This document shows positions 2,351 to 39,360 of a stretch of DNA of 64,000 bases, one piece after another (position 1 is the stretch's first letter; every line of letters begins with the position of its first letter). Source of the DNA: an uncultured Bacilli bacterium (GTDB taxonomy: Bacteria; Bacillota_I; Bacilli_A; RF39; UBA660); assembly GCA_944350365.1 (NCBI GenBank), contig CALVOU010000002.1, forward strand, positions 7,290 through 71,289, read 5' to 3'. Both the position numbers and the translations under genes were made by a program. The notes beneath the pieces were generated by a model that made no database searches, was not told the DNA's origin, and was given only the letters and a program-made list of their open reading frames with translations.

Positions 2351-3565
2351 GTGAAGAAAAAAAAACGCTTTCTGTCAGGATTATCTATCTTGTTGATAGT
2401 AAGTCTAATAATCATGCCTTTTACTTCAGTAAAAGCTGAAACGCTACAAGACTATAAAAATCAGTTGGCTAAATATAAAAAAGAACAACAAGAAAATAAT
2501 GATAAAATCAATGAAACAGAAGATAAAATAGAAAGTTCTAATCAAGAAATTGAAAGCATTAAACAAGAATTACAAGATATGACAGAAGAAATAGAACAAA
2601 TGCGTCAAGATATCATTACCTATAATAACGAAATTAAAGAAAAAGAAATCGAAAGTAAAGAAATCATTGCTTATTATCAAATGGCCCAAGGCGAAAACTT
2701 ATATTTAGAATATGCGTTTGGGGCAGAAACCATTACGGATTTAATTTATAGAATGTCGGTTGTAGAACAATTAGTGGAATATAATGAAAACACAATTAAA
2801 GAACTAAATAACATGATTAAAGCTAATGAGCAAAGAGAAGTAGAGTTAAACCAAAAAGAAGAAGAAATGACGCAAAGACAAGAAGAATTAACTCAACAAG
2901 TTACCGATTTAACCGGAGTCAAAGCTTCACTTAATGAAAACTCTGTATCAGTAGAAAAGCAAATAAAAATATATGAGGAACAGATTCAAGCCTATGAAGA
3001 GATGGGGTGTGATGATAACGATGTCATCGGACGCGATTGTGCTACCACAAGTAGTGTTGCCGGATGGTATCGTCCTATTGAAAGTGGCTATGTAACAAGT
3101 GAGTTTGGCTATCGTTGGGGAAGTCTTCATCGAGCTGTCGATGTATCCAATAGAAATCCTTATAGTACTAAGATATATCCGGTGGCTAACGGAATAATTA
3201 CAGCTGTCTACGATGATGATTATGGAGCGTTAACCGTAGTAATTGAGCATAAAACTGCATCTGGTCAATATTATTCTTCACTATATACTCATATGAGTTC
3301 TTATGCCCCTTACGTCGATGAAGGGGTGGAAGTAACAGTTAACGACTACCTCGGGTATATGGGCGCAACTGGGTATGCCTATGGACCACATCTCCATTTA
3401 GAAATTGCCCCATGTCGTTTATTTAATCAATATGATAAAAATTGTAATACTTGGGACAAGTATGTAAGCTATGTTACCAGAATTTATAATAATGGAACCT
3501 TTACTGGACCAAGAGAGTTAATTTATTTCCCTAAACAGAATGTATTCTTCTCCGGTAGAAGATAA
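2351..3565 (+). CDS. M23 family metallopeptidase with N-terminal coiled coil (EnvC/PcsB-like FtsEX-associated hydrolase)
   Basis: A signal peptide is followed by a long K/E/Q-rich coiled coil and a C-terminal M23 domain (HRAVDV, GPHLHLE). A GTG start follows AAGGAG. A terminator hairpin GTCGAT/ATCGAC lies at about 3580-3610. Confidence 0.8.
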   Translation: MKKKKRFLSGLSILLIVSLIIMPFTSVKAETLQDYKNQLAKYKKEQQENNDKINETEDKIESSNQEIESIKQELQDMTEEIEQMRQDIITYNNEIKEKEIESKEIIAYYQMAQGENLYLEYAFGAETITDLIYRMSVVEQLVEYNENTIKELNNMIKANEQREVELNQKEEEMTQRQEELTQQVTDLTGVKASLNENSVSVEKQIKIYEEQIQAYEEMGCDDNDVIGRDCATTSSVAGWYRPIESGYVTSEFGYRWGSLHRAVDVSNRNPYSTKIYPVANGIITAVYDDDYGALTVVIEHKTASGQYYSSLYTHMSSYAPYVDEGVEVTVNDYLGYMGATGYAYGPHLHLEIAPCRLFNQYDKNCNTWDKYVSYVTRIYNNGTFTGPRELIYFPKQNVFFSGRR

Positions 3566-3730
3566 AAAATAAAAGGAAAGAGGTCGATTTAAGATCGACT
3601 TTTCTTTTATTTAAAAGTAAAAAAAGTAACCCAGAAGTTATTAAGGTACCATGTTATCCTTGCTTCTCTATTTTCAAAGTGATAGAATAAGCGTATAGAT
3701 GAGGAAACCATCTTAAAGTGAGGAGAAAAA

Positions 3731-4420
3731 ATGAAAAAGAAAATATTAATTGGGGTTTTAGTTGTAATTATTATCGCTGTAGTTGCTATCTGCTATTTTG
3801 TTTTTAATGATGGAAAACAAGAACAAAAACTAAAAGATGAATTATTAGAAATCAGCAATTTGACTAATGTTACTCCAATTGACGTCGATGCAATTAATAA
3901 AAAACTAGAGGAAACAATAACAACTGGAGATTATGCTACTGTTGAAAAAGCGATGAAAAGTTATTTGAAAGATAGTTTTGACAATATGATTAGAATTGCT
4001 GAATTGCTAAACGATGATAGAATTACAGGAATACTTACTGCAGAAAACTACCAAGAAGACGGGCCAGACTTTGTGGAAACTAAAGCGTATATCACGTCTA
4101 CTATTCAAGAATTAGAAACTAGAAAAAATAGTTATCAAGAATATCTGACCGAAGAAAAAGCCATGTCTTATATCGAAAATAAAGGATTAGACGATTACTA
4201 CATTGATTTTTATAAAACTGAAATCGTCAAAGATATGGAAAGTGATGATACAACAGTGGCTGATTCCATTGATGGAGTAATTGAAATACTAAGAAATTCT
4301 GAGAAAGTAATTGATTTTCTGATTACCAATAAAGATAATTGGAAAATAGAAAATGACAGTGTTGTCTTTAGTAATGAAGACTTATCTAACCAATATATCA
4401 ATTTGATTTCACAGATATAA
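3731..4420 (+). CDS. Hypothetical membrane-anchored protein (single N-terminal TM)
   Basis: A 229-aa ORF with an N-terminal hydrophobic segment, its own putative promoter (TTGCTT-17-TAGAAT at about 3659-3687) and an RBS. No motif was recognised. Confidence 0.5.
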   Translation: MKKKILIGVLVVIIIAVVAICYFVFNDGKQEQKLKDELLEISNLTNVTPIDVDAINKKLEETITTGDYATVEKAMKSYLKDSFDNMIRIAELLNDDRITGILTAENYQEDGPDFVETKAYITSTIQELETRKNSYQEYLTEEKAMSYIENKGLDDYYIDFYKTEIVKDMESDDTTVADSIDGVIEILRNSEKVIDFLITNKDNWKIENDSVVFSNEDLSNQYINLISQI

Positions 4421-4440
4421 GAGCGTGAGCTCTTTTTTTG
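4420..4440 (+). terminator. Intrinsic terminator after the 3731 gene
   Basis: Hairpin AGAGC-gtga-GCTCT followed by TTTTTTT. It lies inside the ORF-track start (4425) of the next ORF, which argues for a downstream start at 4518. Confidence 0.5.
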
Positions 4441-4517
4441 TTTCTTCATTTACAGAAAATTTCTTTTCCAATGAAAAAAGAGCTGTTATAATAATAGGAA
4501 ATCAGGGAGAGTGTTGC

Positions 4518-6344
4518 ATGATGCTAAGGGGAAATATTGAAATTTATCAAGAAATAGATAAATGGCAAGCTAAGTACAAACTAACTCCAGAAGAAATAGA
4601 TGCTTTATATTTAAAAGATGGAGTCACTACTAAATCCTTAGAAAGGCAACTACAAGAATTAGAAAATAATTTAAAAGCATTAACCCCATCACGAGAAGAA
4701 AGATTGCTCCAAGCGATGTTTGGTGTAGAACCACGAGAAAATGAAGAAGAAAAACAGAAACTCCAAGAGGAAATCCAACATCTTAAACAAAAATTATCTG
4801 ATCCAGAGAGCTTTCTCGTTTATGCCACATCGCGAAAAAAACCTCGTTTAAGAACATATCCGACTAGTAATACAGAAGAAAAAGTATTTCAAGCGAATCT
4901 TTATTTAGCTAGAAAGCTAGCGATGATCTACTATTATAAAAGTGATAAAAACTATGAATACGATGATTTATTTCAAGAAGCAAGCGAAGCTCTACTACAA
5001 GCTGTTCACTACTATGTTCCTTTAGGAGAGGCAACTTTCAAAACCTATGCAACTAAATGTATAGAGAATCGCTTAAAAAGAGTAGTATTTCCTAAAAAGA
5101 AAAAGAGAAAACGATTAACAAGAAAAGAATACTACCAACAGGAATTAGATAACCTAGAACGATTATATTTATATATAGAAGCTAGATACATTCAAAAAGA
5201 TAATCTTTTTTTGGTAAACCATTATCCAGATGCTTGGCGAAAGGCAATTAGAAAATGGAATAGTGGAATTAAAATGTTTAATCGTGAAGTGCAAAATTTA
5301 GGTGAAGAAAATAGAGTACAGCCTAAAGTGAAAATCAGAAAAGAGAATTCTTATGAAGAATTTTTAGAAGAATTAATTTGCCTAGTAAAAGCCACTAATT
5401 TAGAAGAGCTTATTGATGAAGAAGATCGCCAAATGGTAAACTCATTACAAAACTTTAAGAAGATTAATTCAAAAGATAAGACGGTATTTACTATGTTAGA
5501 ATATATTCGCATTGCGCAAAAAAAATTAGAGGATATCCAATTGTATTTAGAAGTAGAAGCTTCTCTTCGTAATCAAGGACAAACGCCAACACTAGAATTA
5601 ATGGAAAAAGCTATGAATGAACGTGTAAAAAAGTTAAATTCTATGATTCGTTTTTACCAGAATGCACCGAGTTCCGCTAAGATAGAAGCCAATATATTGG
5701 ATAGAACATGGTACAGTATAGAATATTATGACCTATATAAAGTCGATATCTTCAATCCAGAAGATCGGGTAAAAGAATTTGAAGATATCCGAACTTTGAT
5801 AGTAGCGACACATAAAGAACCGCTTGATGAAGAAAGTATGATCAGAGAAGTTCAACAAGAGTTAATGGCAAGAAAACAGAAAGTATCTCAAGTAGTAGCT
5901 AGTGAGAACAAAAAGATATATGCGGAAAATAAGAAAAGACTACAATCTCACCAAGCCCTTCAAAGAAAAGGTAAGTATTATCGTAAATACACGTTAAAAG
6001 ATATCCAAGAAATAGAAAATAACATTACGATTCAGGAAAATAGCCACGAAGAATGGATCACTGAAGTTGAACAGAAAGAATCAACCACAACTCTCTCTGT
6101 AGAAGACGAAGCTATTCAGAATGTATTTTTAGAAGATTACTATAAAAGCTTAGAAGAACTTCCTGAACAAGAAAAAGAAATTTTAAAAAGATGGTACAAT
6201 TTTCTGGGAAAACATGAAATGAACGCCAAAGAGATTGCCGAAGAGTTAAATATTTCTCCTAGAATAGTTTATCAGAAAAAAGAACAGGCGTTAAAAAGAT
6301 TAGCTAAAGTAAAAAGATTAATAGCGTATCAAGAAAACGAATAG
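4518..6344 (+). CDS. Atypically large sigma-70-family RNA polymerase sigma factor (about 608 aa) with long insertions between conserved regions
   Basis: Region 2 is DDLFQEASEALLQAVHYYVPLGEATFKTYATKCIENRL. A region 3.0-like segment is LRNQGQTPTLELMEKAMNERVKKL. The region 4.2 HTH is LEELPEQEKEILKRWYNF...AKEIAEELNISPRIVYQKKEQALKRLAK. The RBS GGGAGAG lies 6 nt before ATG 4518. The K/E-rich low-complexity linkers total more than 300 aa. Confidence 0.7.
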   Translation: MMLRGNIEIYQEIDKWQAKYKLTPEEIDALYLKDGVTTKSLERQLQELENNLKALTPSREERLLQAMFGVEPRENEEEKQKLQEEIQHLKQKLSDPESFLVYATSRKKPRLRTYPTSNTEEKVFQANLYLARKLAMIYYYKSDKNYEYDDLFQEASEALLQAVHYYVPLGEATFKTYATKCIENRLKRVVFPKKKKRKRLTRKEYYQQELDNLERLYLYIEARYIQKDNLFLVNHYPDAWRKAIRKWNSGIKMFNREVQNLGEENRVQPKVKIRKENSYEEFLEELICLVKATNLEELIDEEDRQMVNSLQNFKKINSKDKTVFTMLEYIRIAQKKLEDIQLYLEVEASLRNQGQTPTLELMEKAMNERVKKLNSMIRFYQNAPSSAKIEANILDRTWYSIEYYDLYKVDIFNPEDRVKEFEDIRTLIVATHKEPLDEESMIREVQQELMARKQKVSQVVASENKKIYAENKKRLQSHQALQRKGKYYRKYTLKDIQEIENNITIQENSHEEWITEVEQKESTTTLSVEDEAIQNVFLEDYYKSLEELPEQEKEILKRWYNFLGKHEMNAKEIAEELNISPRIVYQKKEQALKRLAKVKRLIAYQENE

Positions 6345-7780: not shown

Positions 7781-8470
7781 ATGAAAAGAAATAAACGGTT
7801 AATAATTTTAGTGATTATCGTAATTTTAATTTTAGGTATAGTTTACTATTTTCTAGATTACTATAATTTAATTCCCAAAAAATATTATAGTGGAGAAGAC
7901 TTTAATATTGATTATGTATATAGTGATCATGATCAAGATAAAGATGAAGTAGATGACTATGTTGATTTGTTAAATGGTGCACGTAATTTCGTAGAACAAA
8001 ACCCTAAGTATAAAAGTGAATACTATGACGGAGGATATCCTCCTCCAGGAATAGGTGTATGTACAGATGTTGTTGCTGCAGCTTTCCTAGAAGCAGGTTA
8101 TGATTTACGAGGGCTAGTTGATCAAGACATTCGAACTCATCGCAAAGCATATCCAGAAATTAAAGTAATAGATAAAAATATTGATTATCGACGGGTTAGA
8201 AATTTAAAAATCTTTTTCGACAGAAATGCTTCCTCTTTAACAACAGATATGAAGCAAATAGAAAAGTGGCAAGGTGGAGATATTGTTATTTTCCCTAATC
8301 ATATTGCGGTTGTTTCTGATCGAAGAAATAAAGAAGGAATCCCTTATATTATTCATCATGGTGGTCAACCTGTCTATGAAGAAGATGCATTAAAACGTTA
8401 TAAAGGAAATATAATTGGCCATTATCGAATAGACTTTTCTAAACTTATATCTAAGGAAAGTATTAACTGA
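7781..8470 (+). CDS. Hypothetical membrane-anchored protein (possibly DUF1287-like)
   Basis: A 229-aa ORF with an N-terminal TM and a conserved-looking core (GVCTDVVAAAF...IVIFPNHIAVV...IIHHGG). The family name is from memory only. Confidence 0.45.
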   Translation: MKRNKRLIILVIIVILILGIVYYFLDYYNLIPKKYYSGEDFNIDYVYSDHDQDKDEVDDYVDLLNGARNFVEQNPKYKSEYYDGGYPPPGIGVCTDVVAAAFLEAGYDLRGLVDQDIRTHRKAYPEIKVIDKNIDYRRVRNLKIFFDRNASSLTTDMKQIEKWQGGDIVIFPNHIAVVSDRRNKEGIPYIIHHGGQPVYEEDALKRYKGNIIGHYRIDFSKLISKESIN

Positions 8471-8518
8471 TTACCCAATCATCCCTAAAAAATATTAGTG
8501 ACTAATAGACTAACTATT

Positions 8519-9508
8519 CTAATGATTATGTAAATATAATACGAATTCTTTAGCTTTCTCTTGAAGACTATCTGGTAAATAAGTTTTCGCTAGTAAAAAG
8601 TCACAAAACCATTCTTTCCGCCAAGTAAGTAGTTGTTTAAATAAAGTTAGTTTTTCTTTTTGATAGTTAGGCTCTATTTGTTCAATATACTGCATAAATA
8701 AATCGTTAAAAGGATTGATATGATTATCCATCCATGGTTTAATTCCAGCTAATCCATAAGAATGAATAATTTTAGGATCTTTTCTTGCTTCTATTGTCTC
8801 TTCTAAAGTAATTTTTCTTTTGTTAGGATTATAAAAGAGTTTTTCTTTTTTTGAGCTGAAAATATAAGAAAAAGGAGAAAGATTATAGGATAATGGTAAC
8901 CATTCTGTTTGATTATTCAAAACACAATTTAAAATATCTTGATCTGGATAAGTTAACGGAATATTCTTGTTTTTCTGGATGAAATTAATGATTTTTGTTT
9001 GATAATCCATCTTTTTCCAAGTATCTAGATGGATGTACATAACCCCGGAATTAAAATAATCTTGAAGATGATTTAAGTTATTATAATAGGAATTAGTAGT
9101 TTCATCTCTTACTACGTATATTCCTTCTGTATATTGCTCTAGAGAAGTTAAGTCTCCAACAATAATTGTATCCGCATCTAAATAAAGAAGATAATCAATC
9201 GTATCCAAACTAGATTTCATAATTTCTTGAAAAAATAATCTTGAATTAGCTACCTGAGTACCATGCCAAAAGGGTATTCCATATTGGGATAAATTAAATT
9301 CATCAATGGGATATAGATGAAAGGTGGCTTGAGGATATTGGCTGAAAAAACGCTCTATTTTTTGATAATCAGCATCAGAAAAATTCTCTATCATAATATG
9401 AAAATGCAAAGTTAAGATTTTAGCGTTTTCTATCAAAGAAAGAATAGAGGCTAAGGTAATTGTCAAGTAATTAGAATTAGTGGCATATAAAATGTTTAGT
9501 TCCCTCAT
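8519..9508 (-). CDS. Glycosyltransferase family 8 protein (GspA-like), paralog 1
   Basis: It has the DXD motif LYLDADTIIVGD and GT8 blocks (NSRLFFQEI, YYNSGVMYI, QYPDQDILNCVLN, HSYGLAGIKPWM). It is about 55% identical to the ORF at 13071-14057 in inverted orientation. Confidence 0.75.
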   Translation of the reverse strand: MRELNILYATNSNYLTITLASILSLIENAKILTLHFHIMIENFSDADYQKIERFFSQYPQATFHLYPIDEFNLSQYGIPFWHGTQVANSRLFFQEIMKSSLDTIDYLLYLDADTIIVGDLTSLEQYTEGIYVVRDETTNSYYNNLNHLQDYFNSGVMYIHLDTWKKMDYQTKIINFIQKNKNIPLTYPDQDILNCVLNNQTEWLPLSYNLSPFSYIFSSKKEKLFYNPNKRKITLEETIEARKDPKIIHSYGLAGIKPWMDNHINPFNDLFMQYIEQIEPNYQKEKLTLFKQLLTWRKEWFCDFLLAKTYLPDSLQEKAKEFVLYLHNH

Positions 9509-9839
9509 CTTTTAACCTTCCTTTTGCCAAAAATATTTTAATGAAAGGATAAATAAGAGAAAGTCTTATTCTCTTCTCCTATATCAGTTTTAAATATTAG
9601 GTTATAATCTATTTATTCCATTATATATCAACTTATGAATAATTAGAAAGAGATAAAGAAGAAAACTAACCTATTAAACAGGACATAATAGAATGATTTT
9701 TAAGTAAACATGTGTCAATGACAGAGATAGATCATAAATCTAATTGCTTATCCTTGTTTTATCTATTATAGTTAAAGTAAAGATGTATGTAAAAACACGA
9801 AAAGAATAATAGAAAAAATAACTGGTAAAGGAGAAAAAA

Positions 9840-10205
9840 ATGTTAGAGTATGTTTTATTAGAAGGAGAAGAAATAAAACTTTTATCGGATAAGTCATTAT
9901 TAAAGGTAGAAAACAAAGAAATCCCAATCACTACTTTAATTACGAATAAAAGAATGATGTTGTTTGATTATCCAAAAGATGAGGAATCTTTTCGGTCTGG
10001 ACCTCAAATTAATCCTATAGTGAGAATGAAGAAAGAAATTATATTTGAAACTCCATTATCTGAAATTGAAAAAATAGAGGATACAGATAAGGGAAGTAAA
10101 TATATTTTAAAAAATGGAAACTATTTTTACTTAACAGATAACAAAGTTACGTCATATATTCATTCTTATATGATGAATGTAGAAAATAATGAAGAAAGTA
10201 AATAA
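9840..10205 (+). CDS. Hypothetical small protein (121 aa)
   Basis: ORF with an AAAGGAG RBS. No motif was recognised. Confidence 0.4.
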   Translation: MLEYVLLEGEEIKLLSDKSLLKVENKEIPITTLITNKRMMLFDYPKDEESFRSGPQINPIVRMKKEIIFETPLSEIEKIEDTDKGSKYILKNGNYFYLTDNKVTSYIHSYMMNVENNEESK

Positions 10206-10285
10206 TCTTTTCATCAATTTAGCCAGGAAATATTTACTTATACTAAAAGGAACAATTTAACACTTAGTATAGATAGAGGTAGTAT

Positions 10286-10735
10286 ATGAAAAAAAGAAAT
10301 TGGTATCTAATAGGAGTAATGGGGTTACTAATAGTAATTGCGCTGTTTTTAGTAATAAAAATAATTTTAAATGTTGTAGGTTACGATTTTCTAGGATGGG
10401 TATACTATGCCTTGCTCTTTCTTGTCAATATTTTTCTCATTACCTATTCACTGATCTATATAAATAAAAAACAAGGAAAGATAGATGGCCTCATAATTAG
10501 TATTTTCTTACTTATTATAGAAATCCCTATTTGCCTTGTTGTTTCTTCCCTAATCAGTATAGTCTTCAATTTCCATCATGAAGAAATAATTATCATAAAC
10601 AGTGAAAAGTACATAAAAAGCTATGATGCGTTTGAACTACATTCCAAGCCAGATTATTATGAATATATTAATCCCTTTATTAGAAAACAAGAGAAATTGG
10701 TTTATGACTTAGAAATGGATCAAAATATTCAGTAA
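10286..10735 (+). CDS. Hypothetical membrane protein (149 aa, 3 predicted TM segments)
   Basis: Hydrophobic N-terminal two thirds, with a GAGGTAG RBS. Confidence 0.45.
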   Translation: MKKRNWYLIGVMGLLIVIALFLVIKIILNVVGYDFLGWVYYALLFLVNIFLITYSLIYINKKQGKIDGLIISIFLLIIEIPICLVVSSLISIVFNFHHEEIIIINSEKYIKSYDAFELHSKPDYYEYINPFIRKQEKLVYDLEMDQNIQ

Positions 10736-11086: not shown

Positions 11087-13051
11087 ATGTTCAATTTAGT
11101 ATCAAAATTTAAACCAAGTGGTGATCAACCAGAAGCGATTAAAGAGTTAGTCGCAGGAATAAAAGAAGGAAAGAAAAACCAAGTTCTATTAGGGGCAACC
11201 GGTACAGGTAAGACTTTTACGATGGCGAATGTAATTCAAGAAGTAGATAAGCCAACTCTAATTTTAGCTCATAATAAAACATTAGCGGGGCAACTATACT
11301 CTGAGTTTAAAGAACTATTCCCTGAAAATCGAGTAGAGTATTTTGTTTCCTACTATGACTATTATCAGCCAGAAGCCTATGTTCCTTCTACAGATACCTA
11401 TATTGAAAAGGATTCTTCCATCAACGATGAAATTGATGAGTTGCGTCATTCTGCTACCAGTGCATTACTTTCTAGACGAGATGTTATTGTTGTTGCGAGT
11501 GTTTCTTGTATCTATGGTATTGGTGAAGTTGAAGAGTACTTAAAGAAAATGTTAACCATTAATGTAGGAGATATTATCAGTAGAAATCAAATTCTAGCTA
11601 AACTAGTAGAAATGATGTATGAAAGAAATGACTTCGATTTTAAACGTGGAACTTTTCGAGTTAAAGGGGACACTCTAGAAATCATCCCAGCTTATCAAAG
11701 TACCAAAGGAATTAGAATTGAATTCTTCGATGATGAAGTAGACAGAATCAGTGAAATTGATATTTTAACTGGAGCAATTATTCAAAATAAGAAAACGATC
11801 AGTATTTTCCCAGCTAGCCACTTCGTAACAAGTGATGATAAACTACATGAAGCAATCCGTAGAATCAAAGAAGAACTCGCCGTTCGTTTGAAGGAATTAA
11901 AAGACAACAACAAGTTACTTGCAGCCGAACGATTGGAGCAAAGAACGAACTACGATATTGAAATGCTAGAAGAAACTGGTTTCTGTCATGGCATAGAAAA
12001 TTATTCCCGTCATATGTCTCTAAGAGGAGAAGGGGAGACACCTACTACATTAATTGATTTCTTCCCTGATGATTTTCTTTTAATCGTCGACGAATCTCAT
12101 GTGACCCTTCCTCAAGTACGTGGTATGTATAATGGTGACCGAGCTCGTAAAATGAATTTAGTAGAGTATGGCTTTAGGTTGCCTAGTGCCTTAGATAATC
12201 GACCATTAAAATTCGATGAGTTTGAACATAAATTAAATCAGGCTATCTATGTATCCGCTACACCTGGTGACTATGAATTAGGTTTGACTGGCGGTAAGTT
12301 CATTGAACAAATTATTCGTCCAACTGGATTATTAGATCCGACAATTGAAATCCGTAAAACAGAAGGGCAAATCGATGATTTAATTGCCGAGATTAAAGAA
12401 CGGATAGCTAAGAACGAAAGAACCTTAATTACGACACTGACTATTCGTATGGCTGAAGAATTAACCAACTATTTAAAAGAAACCGATATTAAAGTCGCTT
12501 ATTTACATAGTGAAGTTAAAACGCTAGAGAGAATGCGGATTATTCGTGATCTTCGTCTTGGAAAATACGATTGTATTGTCGGAATTAACCTACTAAGAGA
12601 AGGAATCGATATCCCAGAAGTAAGTTTAATTGCCATATTAGATGCGGATAAAGAAGGTTTCTTGAGAAGTGAACGGAGTTTAATCCAAACCATTGGACGT
12701 TGTGCGAGAAATGCTGAAGGCCACTGTATCATGTATGCCGATAAAATCACGGATAGTATGAGAAATGCGATCGATGAAACAAAACGTCGTCGAGAAATTC
12801 AAGAAGCATATAACCGTGAACATGGTATTGTTCCTAAAACAATTCAAAAAGAAATTCGTGAATTAATCAGTAACGTCGATGAAACCAAGGAAACAAAAGG
12901 AAAGAAAGCCCAGAAAGTCGATAAGAAAGAGTTACTTAAGACAATTCAAAATATTGAAGAGGAAATGAAGAAAGCTGCTCGTGACCTTGACTTCGAAAGA
13001 GCGATGGAACTACGTGATATTTTATTCGAAATGAAAGCAGAAAATGAATAG
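11087..13051 (+). CDS. uvrB: Excinuclease ABC subunit B
   Basis: Walker A GATGTGKT, helicase motifs and the C-terminal UVR domain ([16 protein letters not shown]). The start was moved to the ATG at 11087, which has an AAAGGTG RBS. Confidence 0.95.
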
Positions 13052-13070: not shown

Positions 13071-14057
13071 TTGAAAACATCTCATATTTTATACGCAACA
13101 GATAAAAATTACTTAGAAATTACCTTAGCTTCTATTTTATCTCTATTAGAAAATGCTCAGTTAGAAGAACCTATCCTTCATTTGATTACTGAAAAATTAG
13201 AAGATGATGACTATCAGAAAATAGAAAAAGTAATGCATGCTTATCCCCAGATAAAATATTATATTTATCCACTGGAAGATTATCACATCGAAAAATACCG
13301 TATTCCTGAATGGAAAGGTAGTCAGGTTGCTAATTCTAGGTTGTTTTTCCAAGAAATATTAGCCGAGCAACTTTCTGAAATCGATAATTTATTATACTTA
13401 GACTCCGACACGATTGTTGTTGATCAATTAAATACTCTTTTTTCTCTCCCCGAACATCTAGTCTATGCTAGCAGGGACGAACTAGAAAAGAAATATTATA
13501 AACATCTAAATATTCCGACCTACTATAATTCAGGAGTCTTATATATCAACAAAGAAGCTTGGGTAAAAGAGAACTGCCAACAACAAATCATTGACTTTAT
13601 TAGAACTCACTCTGATTTAAAACTCCAATATCCTGATCAAGATACTTTAAATTGTGTATTAAACGAAAAAATAGAAGAGCTTCCCCTTTCTTATAATCTA
13701 CCTCCCTATGTATTTGGGTTAAATACTCCTCATAGAAAGTTATATTGTTTAAAGAAAGGAATTGCTTATCCAGAAACTTGTAAAGCTCGAGAAAATCCTA
13801 AGATTTTACACAGTTATGGGTTATTTGGAATTAAACCCTGGATGAAGAATAATGTAAATCCCTATAATCAACTATTTAGAAAATATGTATTCCAAGTAGA
13901 TAATAACTTCGAGTTACTTGATGCGCCAGCTCATATTCCGCTAATCAATTCCCGGGATAAATTTTATCAGATGCTTTTAGCTAGAGCGTATATGCCAGAT
14001 GCTTGGCATCAACCATTAAAGAAAATAATTACGAAAGTACGAATTAAAAATAAATAA
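13071..14057 (+). CDS. Glycosyltransferase family 8 protein (GspA-like), paralog 2
   Basis: TTG start after AAGGTGATA. It has the DXD motif LYLDSDTIVVDQ and the same conserved blocks as the 8519-9508 paralog. A terminator-like hairpin lies at about 14143-14176. Confidence 0.75.
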   Translation: MKTSHILYATDKNYLEITLASILSLLENAQLEEPILHLITEKLEDDDYQKIEKVMHAYPQIKYYIYPLEDYHIEKYRIPEWKGSQVANSRLFFQEILAEQLSEIDNLLYLDSDTIVVDQLNTLFSLPEHLVYASRDELEKKYYKHLNIPTYYNSGVLYINKEAWVKENCQQQIIDFIRTHSDLKLQYPDQDTLNCVLNEKIEELPLSYNLPPYVFGLNTPHRKLYCLKKGIAYPETCKARENPKILHSYGLFGIKPWMKNNVNPYNQLFRKYVFQVDNNFELLDAPAHIPLINSRDKFYQMLLARAYMPDAWHQPLKKIITKVRIKNK

Positions 14058-14214
14058 TAGATATCTAATAAAGAATTCAAAACCAATGAAAAGACTAGAA
14101 ATAGAAATTTTCATGAAAGAACGAGGAAAATTCTAAAAGACAAAGTAGATTCAAAAATGAGTCTACTTTTTGATATTTAGAAAATTCTGTTGAAAGAGTC
14201 ATGGCTAACTTAAC

Positions 14215-14228
14215 TTTTGTCGACAAAA
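14215..14228. promoter_or_regulatory. Perfect 14-bp palindrome TTTTGTCGACAAAA upstream of the radical SAM gene (candidate operator, 0A-box-like half sites)
   Basis: Seen directly. It lies about 50 bp upstream of the TTATAAT -10 element at about 14276-14282. Confidence 0.4.
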
Positions 14229-14329
14229 AGATAGGAAATAAAGTAAGAAAAAACTTTTCATAAGAGAAAAATTTCGTTATAATGTCTAATAGACACCTTT
14301 TTAAGGATAGAAAGAAGTAAGTAATCAAT

Positions 14330-15172
14330 ATGAAAAAATTTAAACGGGTATATATTGAAATTTCTAATATTTGCAATTTATCCTGTAGTTTTTGTTCTGT
14401 GAGTAACCGTCCCAAAAGAAGTATGAGTGTCGGTGAGTTTGAAAAAGTATTGAAAAAATTAGATCCATATACGGATTATGTGTATCTACATATTAAAGGG
14501 GAGCCCCTTCTTCATCCCAAGTTAGAAAAGATTCTAGATGTCTGTCGTAAATATAAAAAACAAGTGAATATCACAACGAATGGCGTTCTCTTAAAAGAAA
14601 AAGCGAAAATTTTATTAGATAGTGGCGTAGTTAGACAAATCAATATTTCTCTTCATTCAGAGAATCATAAAGAAAAGTACTTAAAAGATATTTTTGAAGC
14701 AGTAGAGCTTTTGTCTTCTCATATGCATATTGTTTATCGCTTATGGACACTAAATGACTTTAGTTTTGATGCCAAATCCACAAGAACAGTGAATAAAATT
14801 ATGGAGTATTATCACTTATCCATAGGAACAGTGGAAAAAATATATACGGACATGAATATTGAAATCGATAAAAATATATATATTAATAAAGCTAATCAAT
14901 TTATCTGGCCAGATGTGGAGAATCGTTATTGTGAAAGTAAAGGGTACTGTCATGCGTTAAAAGATCATATCGGCATCTTATCTGATGGAACAGTAGTTCC
15001 TTGTTGTTTAGATGGAGAGGGAATAATTAATCTAGGAAATATTTTGACAATGAATATTGACCGTATATTAGAAAATCCTAAAATAGAGGCTATGCGCAAA
15101 GGTTTTGAAAATAGGCAAGTAGCGGAAGAACTATGTAGACATTGTAACTTCAAAGAACAATTTAATCGTTAG
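14330..15172 (+). CDS. Radical SAM enzyme with C-terminal SPASM/twitch-like Cys cluster (280 aa)
   Basis: CX3CX2C motif ISNICNLSCSFCS near the N-terminus. C-terminal cysteines are in GYCHAL...VVPCCLDGEGIINLGNI...CRHCNF. Confidence 0.8.
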   Translation: MKKFKRVYIEISNICNLSCSFCSVSNRPKRSMSVGEFEKVLKKLDPYTDYVYLHIKGEPLLHPKLEKILDVCRKYKKQVNITTNGVLLKEKAKILLDSGVVRQINISLHSENHKEKYLKDIFEAVELLSSHMHIVYRLWTLNDFSFDAKSTRTVNKIMEYYHLSIGTVEKIYTDMNIEIDKNIYINKANQFIWPDVENRYCESKGYCHALKDHIGILSDGTVVPCCLDGEGIINLGNILTMNIDRILENPKIEAMRKGFENRQVAEELCRHCNFKEQFNR

Positions 15173-15225
15173 AAAAAAATAGACTTTTTGATAGGAATAT
15201 ACAAGGGAAAATAATAAAAAAATAA

Positions 15226-15254
15226 TTGACAAAAAGCCAAAAATACGATACAAT
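15226..15254 (+). promoter_or_regulatory. Sigma-A-type promoter TTGACA-17-TACAAT for the 106-aa gene
   Basis: Consensus -35 with a 17-nt spacer; -10 TACAAT lies 45 nt upstream of ATG 15299. Confidence 0.45.
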
Positions 15255-15298
15255 ATCTCTCCTATGTTGAAATAGGGTCAGTAAAGGGGAGAAAAAAT

Positions 15299-15619
15299 AT
15301 GAAAAATTTAAGATACGATACTGCCAAAATATTCTTAGGGTTTGCGGAAACACTAAATCCAAATGCAGGAATCAATGAAAATCAAACGCCCCCTAAGGTA
15401 GTAGTACTACACAAAGATGGAGTTAATCAAAAACCAATCAAAGAGTATGAGTACCATTATTGTAAAAAAATTGTGCCAATCGCAAGTTATATGGATCCAA
15501 AGGAGATCAGTTGGCATATTACGACAAACAAGATCAATGAAATTATCGCTAGAACAGGTATTGAAGAAGCTAATGTAATTGATACCGACAATGCTAAAGT
15601 ATTAAAGAGGGTTGCTTAA
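15299..15619 (+). CDS. Hypothetical 106-aa protein downstream of the radical SAM gene
   Basis: It has its own promoter, an RBS AAGGGGAG and a following terminator. No motif was recognised. Confidence 0.5.
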   Translation: MKNLRYDTAKIFLGFAETLNPNAGINENQTPPKVVVLHKDGVNQKPIKEYEYHYCKKIVPIASYMDPKEISWHITTNKINEIIARTGIEEANVIDTDNAKVLKRVA

Positions 15620-15653: not shown

Positions 15654-15682
15654 TTGACGAACATTTGTTTAAGTAATATAAT
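15654..15682 (+). promoter_or_regulatory. uvrA promoter TTGACG-17-TATAAT with an embedded Cheo/LexA-box-like CGAACATTTGTTTA
   Basis: -35 at 15654-15659 and -10 at 15677-15682. The candidate SOS box at 15658-15671 matches CGAACNNNNGTTYG at 11 of 14 positions. Confidence 0.45.
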
Positions 15683-15758: not shown

Positions 15759-18572
15759 ATGGATCAAATCATCATAAAAGGAGCCCGTGAAAATAATCTA
15801 AAAAACGTGGATTTAACGTTACCTAAAAATAAATTAATTGTTATGACTGGAGTATCTGGAAGTGGAAAAAGTTCTCTTGCTTTTGATACCATTTATGCCG
15901 AAGGACAAAGAAGATATGTGGAAAGTTTATCCGCATATGCTAGACAATTTTTAGGAGGAACTGAAAAACCAGATGTCGATTCAATAGAAGGTTTGTCTCC
16001 ATCAATTAGTATCGATCAGAAAACAACAAGTAAGAACCCTCGTTCAACTGTAGGGACAGTAACGGAAATATATGATTACTTACGTCTTTTATTTGCGAGA
16101 ATAGGAACCCCTTATTGCCCAGAACATCATGTACCTATTTCTTCCCAAAGCATTGAAGAAATGGTCAATAAGATCATGGAACGACCAATGGGTACGAGAT
16201 TAATTATCATGGCACCAGTTGTACATGGCGAAAAAGGAACACATAAAGATTTATTAGATGACTTACGAAAAGATGGCTACGTACGAGTAAGAATAAATGG
16301 TGAAACCTACGACTTAGGAGAAGAAATCAACCTAGAGAAAAATAAAAAATCAGATATCGATGTTGTTGTCGATCGCATTGTTTTAAAAGAAGATAGTAGA
16401 AGTCGTTTAATGGAATCTTTAGAAGTAGCGACTAAACTTTCTCATGGAAAAGTAGTCGTTGACTTTATGGGAGATAAAGAAGTAGTCTTCTCTGAAAATT
16501 TTGCTTGCCCATACTGTGATTTTTCGTTACCAGAATTAGAACCTAGAATGTTTAGTTTCAACGCCCCTTTTGGAGCTTGTCCAGATTGTAAGGGATTAGG
16601 AATTAAACTAAAGATGGATCCAGAGCTAGTTGTTCCAGATGGTAGTAAAAGCTTAAATAATGGCGCAATTAAAACATTAACTGATGATCCAGAAGCATTA
16701 GATTTTAAACGTTTAGAATGCTTATGTAAACACTATAAGATCGATATGAATAAAAGCTTTTCTAAATTAACCAAAAAAGAACAAAATTATATTTTGTATG
16801 GCAGTGATGAATTAATCCATTTTAATTATCGTTCAAAAAGTGGCAATCTCTATAATCAAAAAGATTATTATGAGGGAATCATTAATAATTTAGAAAGAAG
16901 ATATATGGAAACCAACAGTGAATGGATTAGAGAATGGTTAGAAAATTATATGATTGAAACAGAATGTGAAACTTGTCATGGTAGTCGTCTACAAGATAGC
17001 GTTTTATCTGTTTTAGTTGGGGGAAAAAACATATACGAAGTCACTTGTATGAGTATTAAACAACTAGTCGAGTTCTTCCAAAATTTAAAACTTACCCCAT
17101 CCCAACAAGAAATATCTAATCTTTTAATTAAAGAAATTTCTTCTAGACTTTCTTTCTTAAAGAATGTAGGCTTAGAGTATTTGACCCTTAGTCGTTCAGC
17201 AGGAACACTATCAGGTGGGGAAGCACAGAGAATTCGTTTGGCTACACAGATTGGTTCCAAATTAACCGGAGTACTTTATGTTTTAGATGAACCAAGTATT
17301 GGTCTTCACCAACGAGATAACGAAAAATTAATTCAATCCCTATTAGAAATGAGAGACTTAGGAAATACCTTAATCGTCGTTGAACATGATACTGATACGA
17401 TGTTAGCTAGTGATTATTTGGTCGATGTTGGACCTAAAGCTGGATCAGAAGGTGGCTATATTGTAGCGGCAGGTACGCCAGAAGAAGTAATGAAAAATGA
17501 AAATAGTATAACCGGTCGTTATCTTTCTGGAAAAGAAAAGATCGAGGTACCAAAGACAAGGCGAAAAGGAAATAAAAAATATATCGAAATTAAGGGAGCA
17601 AGTGAAAACAACTTAAAAAATATTGATGTGAAAATCCCACTTGGTACCTTAACTTGTGTAACTGGAGTATCAGGAAGCGGAAAAAGTACACTGATTAATC
17701 AAATATTATGCCGAGCAGCCTATGCCAAAGTGTATAAGAGTAAAGACAAACCAGGTAAGCATAAAAAAATATCAGGTCTAGAAAATATCGATAAAGTAAT
17801 CGAAATATCTCAAAACCCTATCGGTAGAACACCACGTAGTAATCCGGCTACTTATACTGGTGTCTTCGATGAGATTCGTGATTTGTTTACCAATACCAAA
17901 GAAGCGAAAATGGCTGGTTTTGAGAAAAATCGCTTTTCCTTCAATGTTAAAGGTGGCCGTTGTGAAGCTTGTCGTGGCGATGGAGTAAAGAAAATCGAGA
18001 TGCATTTCTTACCAGATGTCTATATCCCATGCGAAGTTTGTCATGGAACAAGATACAATAGCGAAACCTTAAGAATTAAATACAAAAATAAAAATATCGC
18101 TGAAGTTTTAGATATGCGTGTGTCTGAAGCTTTAGAGTTTTTCGAAAACGTTCCAAAAATAAAAAATAAATTGCAAGTTCTAGAAGATGTTGGAATTGGA
18201 TATATTAAATTAGGACAGAGCGCAACTACCTTATCAGGTGGAGAAGCTGGTAGAGTAAAACTAGCTAAAGAATTACAGAAGAAACCAACCGGTAAAGCAC
18301 TTTACATTCTAGATGAACCAACAACTGGATTACACTCGGCAGATATCAAAAGATTACTTGCAATATTTAATAAAATAGTAGATAATAAAGATACCGTAGT
18401 AATCATCGAACACAATCTAGATGTAATCAAATGTGCAGACTACATCATTGATTTAGGACCAAATGGTGGCGATAACGGTGGAGAAGTCGTCGCAACAGGA
18501 ACTCCAGAAGAAATTGCCAAAGTAGAAGCGTCTGCCACAGGAGAATTCTTAAAGAAAATATTAGATAACTAG
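15759..18572 (+). CDS. uvrA: Excinuclease ABC subunit A
   Basis: The 937-aa protein has two ABC modules (GVSGSGKSSL, GVSGSGKSTL), zinc-finger Cys pairs and the LSGGEAQR signatures. Confidence 0.95.
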   Translation: MDQIIIKGARENNLKNVDLTLPKNKLIVMTGVSGSGKSSLAFDTIYAEGQRRYVESLSAYARQFLGGTEKPDVDSIEGLSPSISIDQKTTSKNPRSTVGTVTEIYDYLRLLFARIGTPYCPEHHVPISSQSIEEMVNKIMERPMGTRLIIMAPVVHGEKGTHKDLLDDLRKDGYVRVRINGETYDLGEEINLEKNKKSDIDVVVDRIVLKEDSRSRLMESLEVATKLSHGKVVVDFMGDKEVVFSENFACPYCDFSLPELEPRMFSFNAPFGACPDCKGLGIKLKMDPELVVPDGSKSLNNGAIKTLTDDPEALDFKRLECLCKHYKIDMNKSFSKLTKKEQNYILYGSDELIHFNYRSKSGNLYNQKDYYEGIINNLERRYMETNSEWIREWLENYMIETECETCHGSRLQDSVLSVLVGGKNIYEVTCMSIKQLVEFFQNLKLTPSQQEISNLLIKEISSRLSFLKNVGLEYLTLSRSAGTLSGGEAQRIRLATQIGSKLTGVLYVLDEPSIGLHQRDNEKLIQSLLEMRDLGNTLIVVEHDTDTMLASDYLVDVGPKAGSEGGYIVAAGTPEEVMKNENSITGRYLSGKEKIEVPKTRRKGNKKYIEIKGASENNLKNIDVKIPLGTLTCVTGVSGSGKSTLINQILCRAAYAKVYKSKDKPGKHKKISGLENIDKVIEISQNPIGRTPRSNPATYTGVFDEIRDLFTNTKEAKMAGFEKNRFSFNVKGGRCEACRGDGVKKIEMHFLPDVYIPCEVCHGTRYNSETLRIKYKNKNIAEVLDMRVSEALEFFENVPKIKNKLQVLEDVGIGYIKLGQSATTLSGGEAGRVKLAKELQKKPTGKALYILDEPTTGLHSADIKRLLAIFNKIVDNKDTVVIIEHNLDVIKCADYIIDLGPNGGDNGGEVVATGTPEEIAKVEASATGEFLKKILDN

Positions 18573-39238: not shown

Positions 39239-39360
39239 TTTAGGCGTGTGGCTGCTTAGATGTGTAAGGTTGCTGATACACCGGGTTAAGTTGTTAATTG
39301 GAATCAGGTTATTTACACGGAGCATGTCTATACTAGATATAGGCGAAGGGAGGATTCAAA
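39239..39360 (+). other. Long 5' leader of the S10 ribosomal-protein operon (potentially structured regulatory UTR)
   Basis: About 120 nt lie between the promoter and the rpsJ RBS. Complementary GTGTG/CACAC and TGTAAGG/..TTACACGG segments are present. The ORF-track ORFs here are judged non-coding. Confidence 0.35.

Follow-up and report, generated by a model that had tools for sequence, protein, structure and literature searches.

A compact twitch-type radical SAM enzyme is a conserved partner of uvrB in a lineage of gut Bacilli

The 64,000-nucleotide stretch of DNA considered here (hereafter, the window) comes from an uncultured Bacilli bacterium (GenBank assembly GCA_944350365.1, contig CALVOU010000002.1, positions 7,290 to 71,289 of the forward strand) and encodes, at positions 14330 to 15172 (+), a radical S-adenosylmethionine (SAM) enzyme of 280 amino acids (aa). 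Together with a gene for a basic protein of 106 aa (15299 to 15619, +), it lies between uvrB (11087 to 13051) and uvrA (15759 to 18572); both open reading frames (ORFs), which a preliminary description had singled out as a possible peptide or cofactor modification module, are present at exactly these coordinates. We find that the radical SAM gene is conserved as the downstream partner of uvrB, in many cases with translational coupling, in the gut Bacilli lineage to which the window belongs, and that its product is a twitch-type radical SAM enzyme, that is, one with a truncated SPASM domain. The enzyme class is familiar, but we found no previous description of its conserved coupling to nucleotide excision repair: our literature searches returned nothing for this enzyme family that connects radical SAM proteins with uvrB, uvrA, excision repair or the TSCPD small proteins described below.

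The pairing became visible in a context survey of 80 genome and 80 metagenome loci, complemented by exact-protein look-ups, for which ORFs were called and clustered and key clusters annotated with Pfam; the adjacency counts are based on 166 clustered loci, and individual loci of the survey are given below by their L numbers. The radical SAM gene is located directly 3′ of uvrB in 51 of the 166 loci, with a single gene in between in nine more. Counted without redundancy (<90% identity), these uvrB-linked cases amount to 44 enzymes, with pairwise identities as low as 36%. The gaps separating the two genes mostly range from −4 to +2 bp, as is typical of translational coupling, and independent gene calls concur, placing uvrB at 3114-5072 and the radical SAM gene at 5069-5935 in L169 and leaving a 1-bp gap in L167. 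The flanks of the pair are variable, with 33 distinct genes 5′ of uvrB and 25 distinct genes 3′ of the enzyme. In addition, uvrB and the enzyme gene remain together when uvrA is encoded elsewhere, be it as uvrB-radical SAM-yvlD-lgt (L035, L046, L050, L087 and L092) or in other downstream contexts (L049, L051, L060, L075, L082 and L084).

In the window itself, uvrB (+; starting at the ATG at 11087 and 654 aa long, according to the ORF list and the sequence) encodes a protein that shares 99% identity with its L001 counterpart, in which the UvrB Pfam domains are present, and is followed at 13071 to 14057 (+) by a GT8 glycosyltransferase gene (Pfam Glyco_transf_8, 2.6e-30). This genome is the only one with a GT8 gene separating uvrB from the radical SAM gene; in L001, the closest relative (88% identical), the two are 366 bp apart and no GT8 gene is present there. 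A second GT8 gene of the window, on the minus strand at 8519 to 9508, is 46% identical to the first. The preliminary description had viewed the radical SAM gene as a regulated accessory function inserted into the uvrBA locus, a view that does not hold for a gene that is the conserved uvrB operon partner in 44 non-redundant relatives; the true insertion in the window's uvrBA locus is the GT8 gene. It appears to have broken the coupling to uvrB here, with the enzyme presumably read from its own promoter.

Such a promoter behind a terminator-like hairpin is found for the enzyme in the small clade of the window and L001. In the window, the hairpin occupies positions 14142 to 14169 (+; terminator scan and inverted repeat), 3′ of the GT8 gene and 5′ of the promoter-like site TTTTCA-17-TATAAT at 14255 to 14283 (+; promoter scan, 10 of 12 matches). 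L001 keeps this promoter and the leader nearly identical, as well as the upstream hairpin. What it lacks, although promoter, 5′ leader and hairpin are kept, is the 14-bp palindrome TTTTGTCGACAAAA at 14215 to 14228, which had been proposed to be a perfect palindromic operator. Perfect palindromes of this length occur 13 times in the window; shuffled sequences average 7.9 of them and reach as many as 14. Given this chance-level count and the loss in L001, we dismissed the palindrome as an operator and consider it probably not functional. Rfam searches of the window and of eight distant loci where a long gap precedes the radical SAM gene turned up neither a riboswitch nor a leader close to that gene.

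Regarding the enzyme itself, the CX3CX2C motif CNLSCSFC is found at residues 15-22, and its three cysteines (Cys15, Cys19 and Cys22) are invariant in 84 homologues. Pfam assigns only two generic domains to the 280-aa protein, Radical_SAM (PF04055; E 1.6e-18, 67.9 bits vs a cutoff of 29.5) and SPASM (PF13186; E 1.3e-13, 51.5 bits vs 21.5), the latter covering residues 207-273 with the full 67-position model. These matches bear out two early assignments, namely the radical SAM cluster and a SPASM/twitch-type C-terminal cluster domain in a small enzyme. Alignments of 12, 84 and 15 homologues yielded eight invariant cysteines (15, 19, 22, 207, 225, 226, 269 and 272), five of them C-terminal. The first SPASM half-motif, C207-x12-G220-x4-C225 (Cx9-15Gx4C type), is apparent in the sequence itself. 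The protein is twitch-like because only C269-x2-C272 is present thereafter, followed by a mere eight residues to the protein end; the CX5CX3C half of the full SPASM motif (seven or eight cysteines, CX2CX5CX3C) is missing. This cysteine pattern suggests one BtrN-like auxiliary [4Fe-4S] cluster, with Cys 207, 225, 269 and 272 as its probable ligands.

BtrN, the 2-deoxy-scyllo-inosamine dehydrogenase of the butirosin pathway (PDB 4M7T/4M7S), is the best match to the enzyme in both sequence and fold. It is the top PDB sequence match over both halves (E 1.2e-15), at an identity of just 17-19%. With 84 sequences as input, AlphaFold2 produced a confident model (predicted local distance difference test [pLDDT] 89.4, predicted template modeling score [pTM] 0.89) that shows alternating beta/alpha core elements, and its best Foldseek match is again BtrN (4m7t; E 1.2e-11, TM 0.63/0.71, TMt 0.71), followed by SuiB, MoaA, anSME, SkfB and EpeE. 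BtrN is similarly small, with a radical SAM core followed by a truncated SPASM (twitch) domain and the same single-cluster cysteine spacing, and C225, C269 and C272 align to its C187, C232 and C235. Goldman and colleagues reportedly showed in 2013 that these three BtrN residues ligate its single auxiliary cluster, with a fourth ligand around residue 169. Different from BtrN, the enzyme here possesses an extra invariant cysteine, Cys226, in a PCCLD motif. The low identity and the neighbourhood, which features uvrB and uvrA and no aminoglycoside biosynthesis gene cluster, led us to reject membership in the BtrN family. Similarly, anSME, SkfB, SuiB, EpeE and PqqE share the radical SAM core and a C-terminal Fe-S domain (fold-match E 1e-10 to 1e-7), but have two auxiliary clusters and/or the RRE, the recognition element of enzymes acting on peptides made on the ribosome and then altered post-translationally (RiPPs), in proteins of 320-460 aa; unlike them, the present enzyme has neither the CX5CX3C half-motif nor an N-terminal extension.

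No curated family claims the enzyme. All 25 NCBIfam families listed by the hidden Markov model (HMM) search score far below their cutoffs, and the best of them, a tungsten-cofactor maturase and MoaA, match the N-terminal core only (66-69 bits vs cutoffs of 231-380). The assignment to a well-characterized housekeeping family that would have contradicted the preliminary description was therefore not obtained, and no RNA-modification family model is among the NCBIfam families listed. PHROGs and PADLOC returned nothing beyond generic radical SAM and prokaryotic viperin (pVip) core matches. Several specific identities were discarded along the way. MoaA (GTP 3′,8-cyclase) reaches 54-66 bits vs cutoffs of 231-325 over residues 4-117 only, and prokaryotic viperin 38 bits vs a cutoff of 180, with the PADLOC pVip models limited to residues 7-115. 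For anSME, there is a fold match only (E 1.8e-8), no place among the 25 NCBIfam families listed and no sulfatase gene in the neighbourhoods. Spore photoproduct lyase appears neither among the 25 NCBIfam families listed nor in the PDB sequence matches or the 50 listed fold matches.

Taken by its relatives, this is a compact, uncharacterized enzyme family of ∼280 aa in Bacillota. A word-indexed search that scored at most 8,000 candidates gave at least 7,999 significant matches, the 120 listed being mostly ∼280 aa long and 54-99% identical. In an exhaustive search of representatives at 50% identity, 454 clusters reached E ≤ 1e-30, and almost all of these lie at 250-330 aa (about 270-300). The close relatives come, according to their genome records, from uncultured gut Bacilli labelled Bacilli, Bacillales, Tenericutes, Mollicutes or Ca. 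Onthousia, while more distant ones (∼40-45% identity) belong to Clostridium, Paenibacillus, Lachnospira and others.

Within the clade of the window, some members have lost the adjacency to uvrB, and several of these now neighbour other genes of DNA metabolism. The uvrC gene sits directly 3′ in L044 and L055, overlapping the radical SAM stop codon, and recG directly 5′ in L094 and L095, where −1 and 0 bp separate the genes. Seven loci have an HhH-GPD endonuclease III-like gene (nth) directly 5′, and in L045 and L164 it is one gene further upstream; in L027, an RNase HIII-like gene lies 5′ of the enzyme and topA is the second gene 3′. This amounts to four or five DNA-metabolism neighbours among 12-13 distinct contexts, for which a rough, post hoc binomial estimate gives p ∼0.004-0.03, assuming from general knowledge that replication and repair genes make up ∼5-6% of a small genome.

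A very different and strongly conserved arrangement is seen in 37 Lachnospira-type loci, in which an oppositely oriented mtnN is followed by the gene of a TSCPD small protein, by that of the radical SAM enzyme and by murG. The TSCPD protein (PF12637, 81-89 aa) is encoded operonically 5′ of the enzyme, with murG 3′, in L103-L148 and L160 (L105, 5711-7890) as well as in L062, L071 and L077; on TSCPD small proteins, we found nothing in the literature. The divergent upstream gene we take, judging by eye from its sequence, to be similar to nucleosidases for methylthioadenosine and S-adenosylhomocysteine (MTA/SAH). Elsewhere, in L030, L032, L034 and L159, a Cu-oxidase_4 gene (YfiH/PgeF-like; 7277-7996 in L032) separates uvrB from the radical SAM gene. 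Seen together, this insert and the nucleosidase-like neighbour hint at a link to 5′-deoxyadenosine/MTA salvage.

We also looked at the small gene next to the enzyme in the window. In line with the preliminary description, it is preceded by a strong promoter-like site, TTGACA-17-TACAAT at 15226 to 15254 (+; promoter scan, 11 of 12 matches). While a single-sequence search with the 106-aa protein retrieved one cluster only, a profile built from syntenic homologues retrieved 170 clusters of 92-106 aa without a Pfam domain. The gene follows the enzyme by 40-65 bp and precedes uvrA in every relative checked (uvrB-radical SAM-small protein-uvrA), this placement being confined to one clade. In L001 and L002, an unannotated gene of 241-244 aa intervenes between enzyme and small protein (L001, 9106-9831; L002, 4609-5343); this ORF is absent from the window and has no Pfam, PHROG or PADLOC match. 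The small proteins are basic (median pI 9.6) and conserved along their whole length, with G14, T18, K33, V34, L37, Y50, E51, Y52, G87 and E90 being invariant, and the alignment shows no conserved cysteine and no leader/core pattern. No match to the 106-aa protein was obtained in Pfam, NCBIfam, PHROG, PADLOC or, by sequence, the PDB, and the protein's model is mediocre (pLDDT 64) and without a fold match in the PDB. The idea of a common small partner across the enzyme family was abandoned, as the 106-aa and TSCPD profiles each match their own clade only. Thus, of the early view of an unknown adjacent gene in a modification module, the recurrent neighbour stands, as a family of 170 clusters in one clade, and the features of a RiPP precursor are missing. 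We infer that, rather than a RiPP precursor, the 106-aa protein is an accessory partner specific to its clade; it may be a partner or substrate of the enzyme.

Regulation was considered through LexA-like boxes, scanning for the strict Cheo-type pattern GAAC-N4-GTTY as the sole pattern. Such a box is present 66-101 bp 5′ of uvrA in 13 of 49 loci, compared to a background of 0.05 per kb; uvrA-linked boxes occur in the window, L001, L004-L008, L036, L039, L042, L052 and L073. In the window, the box GAACATTTGTTT (15659-15670, pattern search) overlaps the −35 element of the promoter-like site TTGACG-17-TATAAT (15654 to 15682, +; promoter scan) of uvrA (15759 to 18572, +; 937 aa, ORF list), and the uvrA gene of L001, on which the UvrA Pfam domains are recorded, is 96% identical to that of the window. 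Within 200 bp 5′ of the window's radical SAM gene, there is no GAAC-N4-GTTY box. Across the survey, strict boxes were found 5′ of uvrB in 0 of 62 cases and 5′ of the radical SAM gene in 1 of 171, and we rejected LexA control of either gene on these counts. As the box is present at uvrA but not at uvrB, the two genes appear to be separately regulated in this lineage.

What might the enzyme do? Its context leads us to propose, tentatively and short of calling it probable, that it takes part in DNA-damage processing, acting alongside UvrABC, with either damaged DNA or a damage product at the nucleotide level as its substrate. Several observations weigh against this proposal. All uvrB-linked cases stem from one lineage, which also keeps genes of unrelated function together (uvrA-yvlD-lgt-trxB); part of the pairing signal is thus due to inertia. 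Other contexts within the clade have nothing to do with DNA, including SpoIVB/SpoIIM, GNAT, lepB, GGDEF, greA, a tRNA_bind protein and secA, and the Clostridia- and Paenibacillus-type members (35-43% identity) are without a DNA-repair context, being found either as TSCPD-radical SAM-murG or beside lepB, uppP, rsmB or rlmN. Moreover, the substrates of the enzyme's nearest structural relatives are small molecules or peptides and not DNA, no fusion to a DNA-binding domain was seen among the 150 best representatives, and strict LexA-like boxes are missing as described above.

Much of this would also suit a housekeeping radical SAM enzyme unrelated to repair, modifying RNA or acting on a small molecule or cofactor, that came to lie behind uvrB in an ancestor and was kept there by inertia. 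We regard this as a real possibility, if not a probable one. Not only does the uvrA-yvlD-lgt block show that unrelated neighbours persist in the lineage, but outside of it the enzyme occurs in settings foreign to repair, such as the 37 TSCPD-radical SAM-murG loci or rsmB-radical SAM-MBL-rlmN in L102. Others have rlmN adjacent in L129, L136 and L149, a tRNA_bind protein gene in L097, greA in L065, L165 and L166, and mtaB near the enzyme in the nth group; the fold relatives with small-molecule substrates and the single LexA-like box among 171 enzyme genes fit as well. Mere inertia, however, sits poorly with a uvrB-radical SAM pair that survives rearrangement of both flanks in 44 non-redundant genomes, or with a gene that, once separated, is found beside uvrC, recG, nth or RNase HIII-like genes more often than expected, and none of the RNA-modification family models matches the enzyme.

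Alternatively, the enzyme could modify a protein or peptide, with its small neighbour (the 106-aa protein or, in Lachnospira-type loci, the TSCPD protein) as substrate or partner. The tight linkage of a 170-cluster family 40-65 bp after the radical SAM gene and of an operonic 81-89-aa TSCPD protein 5′ of it in 37 loci would be explained, and the SPASM/twitch enzymes anSME, SkfB, SuiB and EpeE do modify proteins or peptides. Yet the two small proteins are mutually unrelated and limited to one clade each, most family members have neither, the 106-aa family shows no conserved cysteine or leader/core pattern, the enzyme is without an RRE domain, and the 244-aa gene parts enzyme and small protein in L001 and L002; on balance, we think this unlikely. 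Still less likely is a viperin- or MoaA-type enzyme that modifies nucleotides in an antiviral role or in nucleotide-pool chemistry. The best HMM match of the N-terminal half is indeed MoaA (66 bits), alongside models for prokaryotic viperin and pVip, but these matches reflect the generic core and stay far below cutoff (38 vs 180 for viperin, 66 vs 231-325 for MoaA); there is no defence-island context, and the gene is chromosomal and vertically inherited with uvrB. As for a maturase of RiPP natural products with a nearby precursor peptide, the suggestion of the preliminary description, membership in the SPASM/twitch superfamily is its sole support, and we hold it to be very improbable indeed. 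The enzyme has no PqqD/RRE match in Pfam and, because its cluster motif begins at residue 15, no room for an N-terminal RRE; its small neighbour is conserved throughout, with no sign of a Cys/Ser/Thr-rich short precursor; downstream genes vary widely; and neither a protease, transporter nor immunity gene is linked to it in the neighbourhoods examined. We therefore rejected the RiPP maturase as a candidate.

Returning to DNA-damage processing, the chemistry would start with the N-terminal CX3CX2C [4Fe-4S] cluster cleaving SAM to a 5′-deoxyadenosyl radical. Most plausibly, and by analogy with BtrN and anSME, this radical would abstract a hydrogen atom from a C-H beside a heteroatom, upon which the auxiliary cluster would take up one electron. 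Acting on DNA, such an enzyme might dehydrogenate or dealkylate a lesion of the alkyl or dihydro type, reversing or preparing it without oxygen or light. Candidate reactions are oxidative N-alkyl removal, as an anaerobic counterpart of AlkB, and re-aromatization of 5,6-dihydropyrimidines. Oxygen-dependent AlkB is of no use to strict anaerobes, and photolyase, being light-dependent, is not something that gut anaerobes can count on. To our knowledge, spore photoproduct lyase (SplB) is the only radical SAM enzyme established in DNA repair. A more daring and, to our minds, rather doubtful extension is that the present enzyme represents a second such class, UvrB-coupled and independent of oxygen and light, in which strict anaerobes reverse or process a lesion by hydrogen abstraction and electron transfer to the auxiliary cluster.

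If the repair proposal is right, the parallel with SplB would be radical SAM-based DNA repair in the absence of light and oxygen. The two have no specific sequence relationship, however, and spore photoproduct lyase, which has neither a twitch domain nor an auxiliary cluster, is connected with sporulation and not with uvrB. Another parallel is CAC3343, an uncharacterized radical SAM family which, like the enzyme here, has been tied to DNA repair by context, and in its case regulation, alone (PMC3828012). CAC3343 differs in family and architecture, is not among the listed NCBIfam matches, and is linked to a UDG-like partner and LexA boxes, whereas the present enzyme is linked to uvrB and shows no LexA-like box. 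With its coupling to uvrB in dozens of gut Bacilli and its uvrC, recG, nth-like and RNase HIII-like neighbours, the enzyme is a concrete candidate for anaerobic DNA-damage chemistry. Even if the repair proposal proves wrong, a false RiPP lead has been removed, and both a compact uncharacterized enzyme family with clear invariant residues and a new small-protein family of 170 clusters have been defined.

Some additional features of these loci deserve mention. In the window, two ORFs of 121 and 149 aa (9840-10205 and 10286-10735, +) lie 5′ of uvrB; both are kept in L001-L003 with no Pfam families recorded, and the 149-aa product resembles a membrane protein. L171 (1-2300) carries two tandem phage-integrase-family genes directly 5′ of uvrB. 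In L165 and L166, ORFs of 689, 311 and 946 aa (2989-5058, 5036-5971 and 7881-10721) flank the radical SAM gene and greA; they have no Pfam match, which is unusual at such size. In the environmental loci L122, L131, L151 and L161 (35-39% identity), the gene directly 5′ of the enzyme encodes another radical SAM protein (380-415 aa; 1964-3109 in L151) that is unrelated to it. Finally, Rfam matched an S10-Clostridia ribosomal-protein leader at 39249 to 39346 (+) of the window, remote from the radical SAM locus, and a c-di-AMP riboswitch at 13804-13936 (+) of L079.

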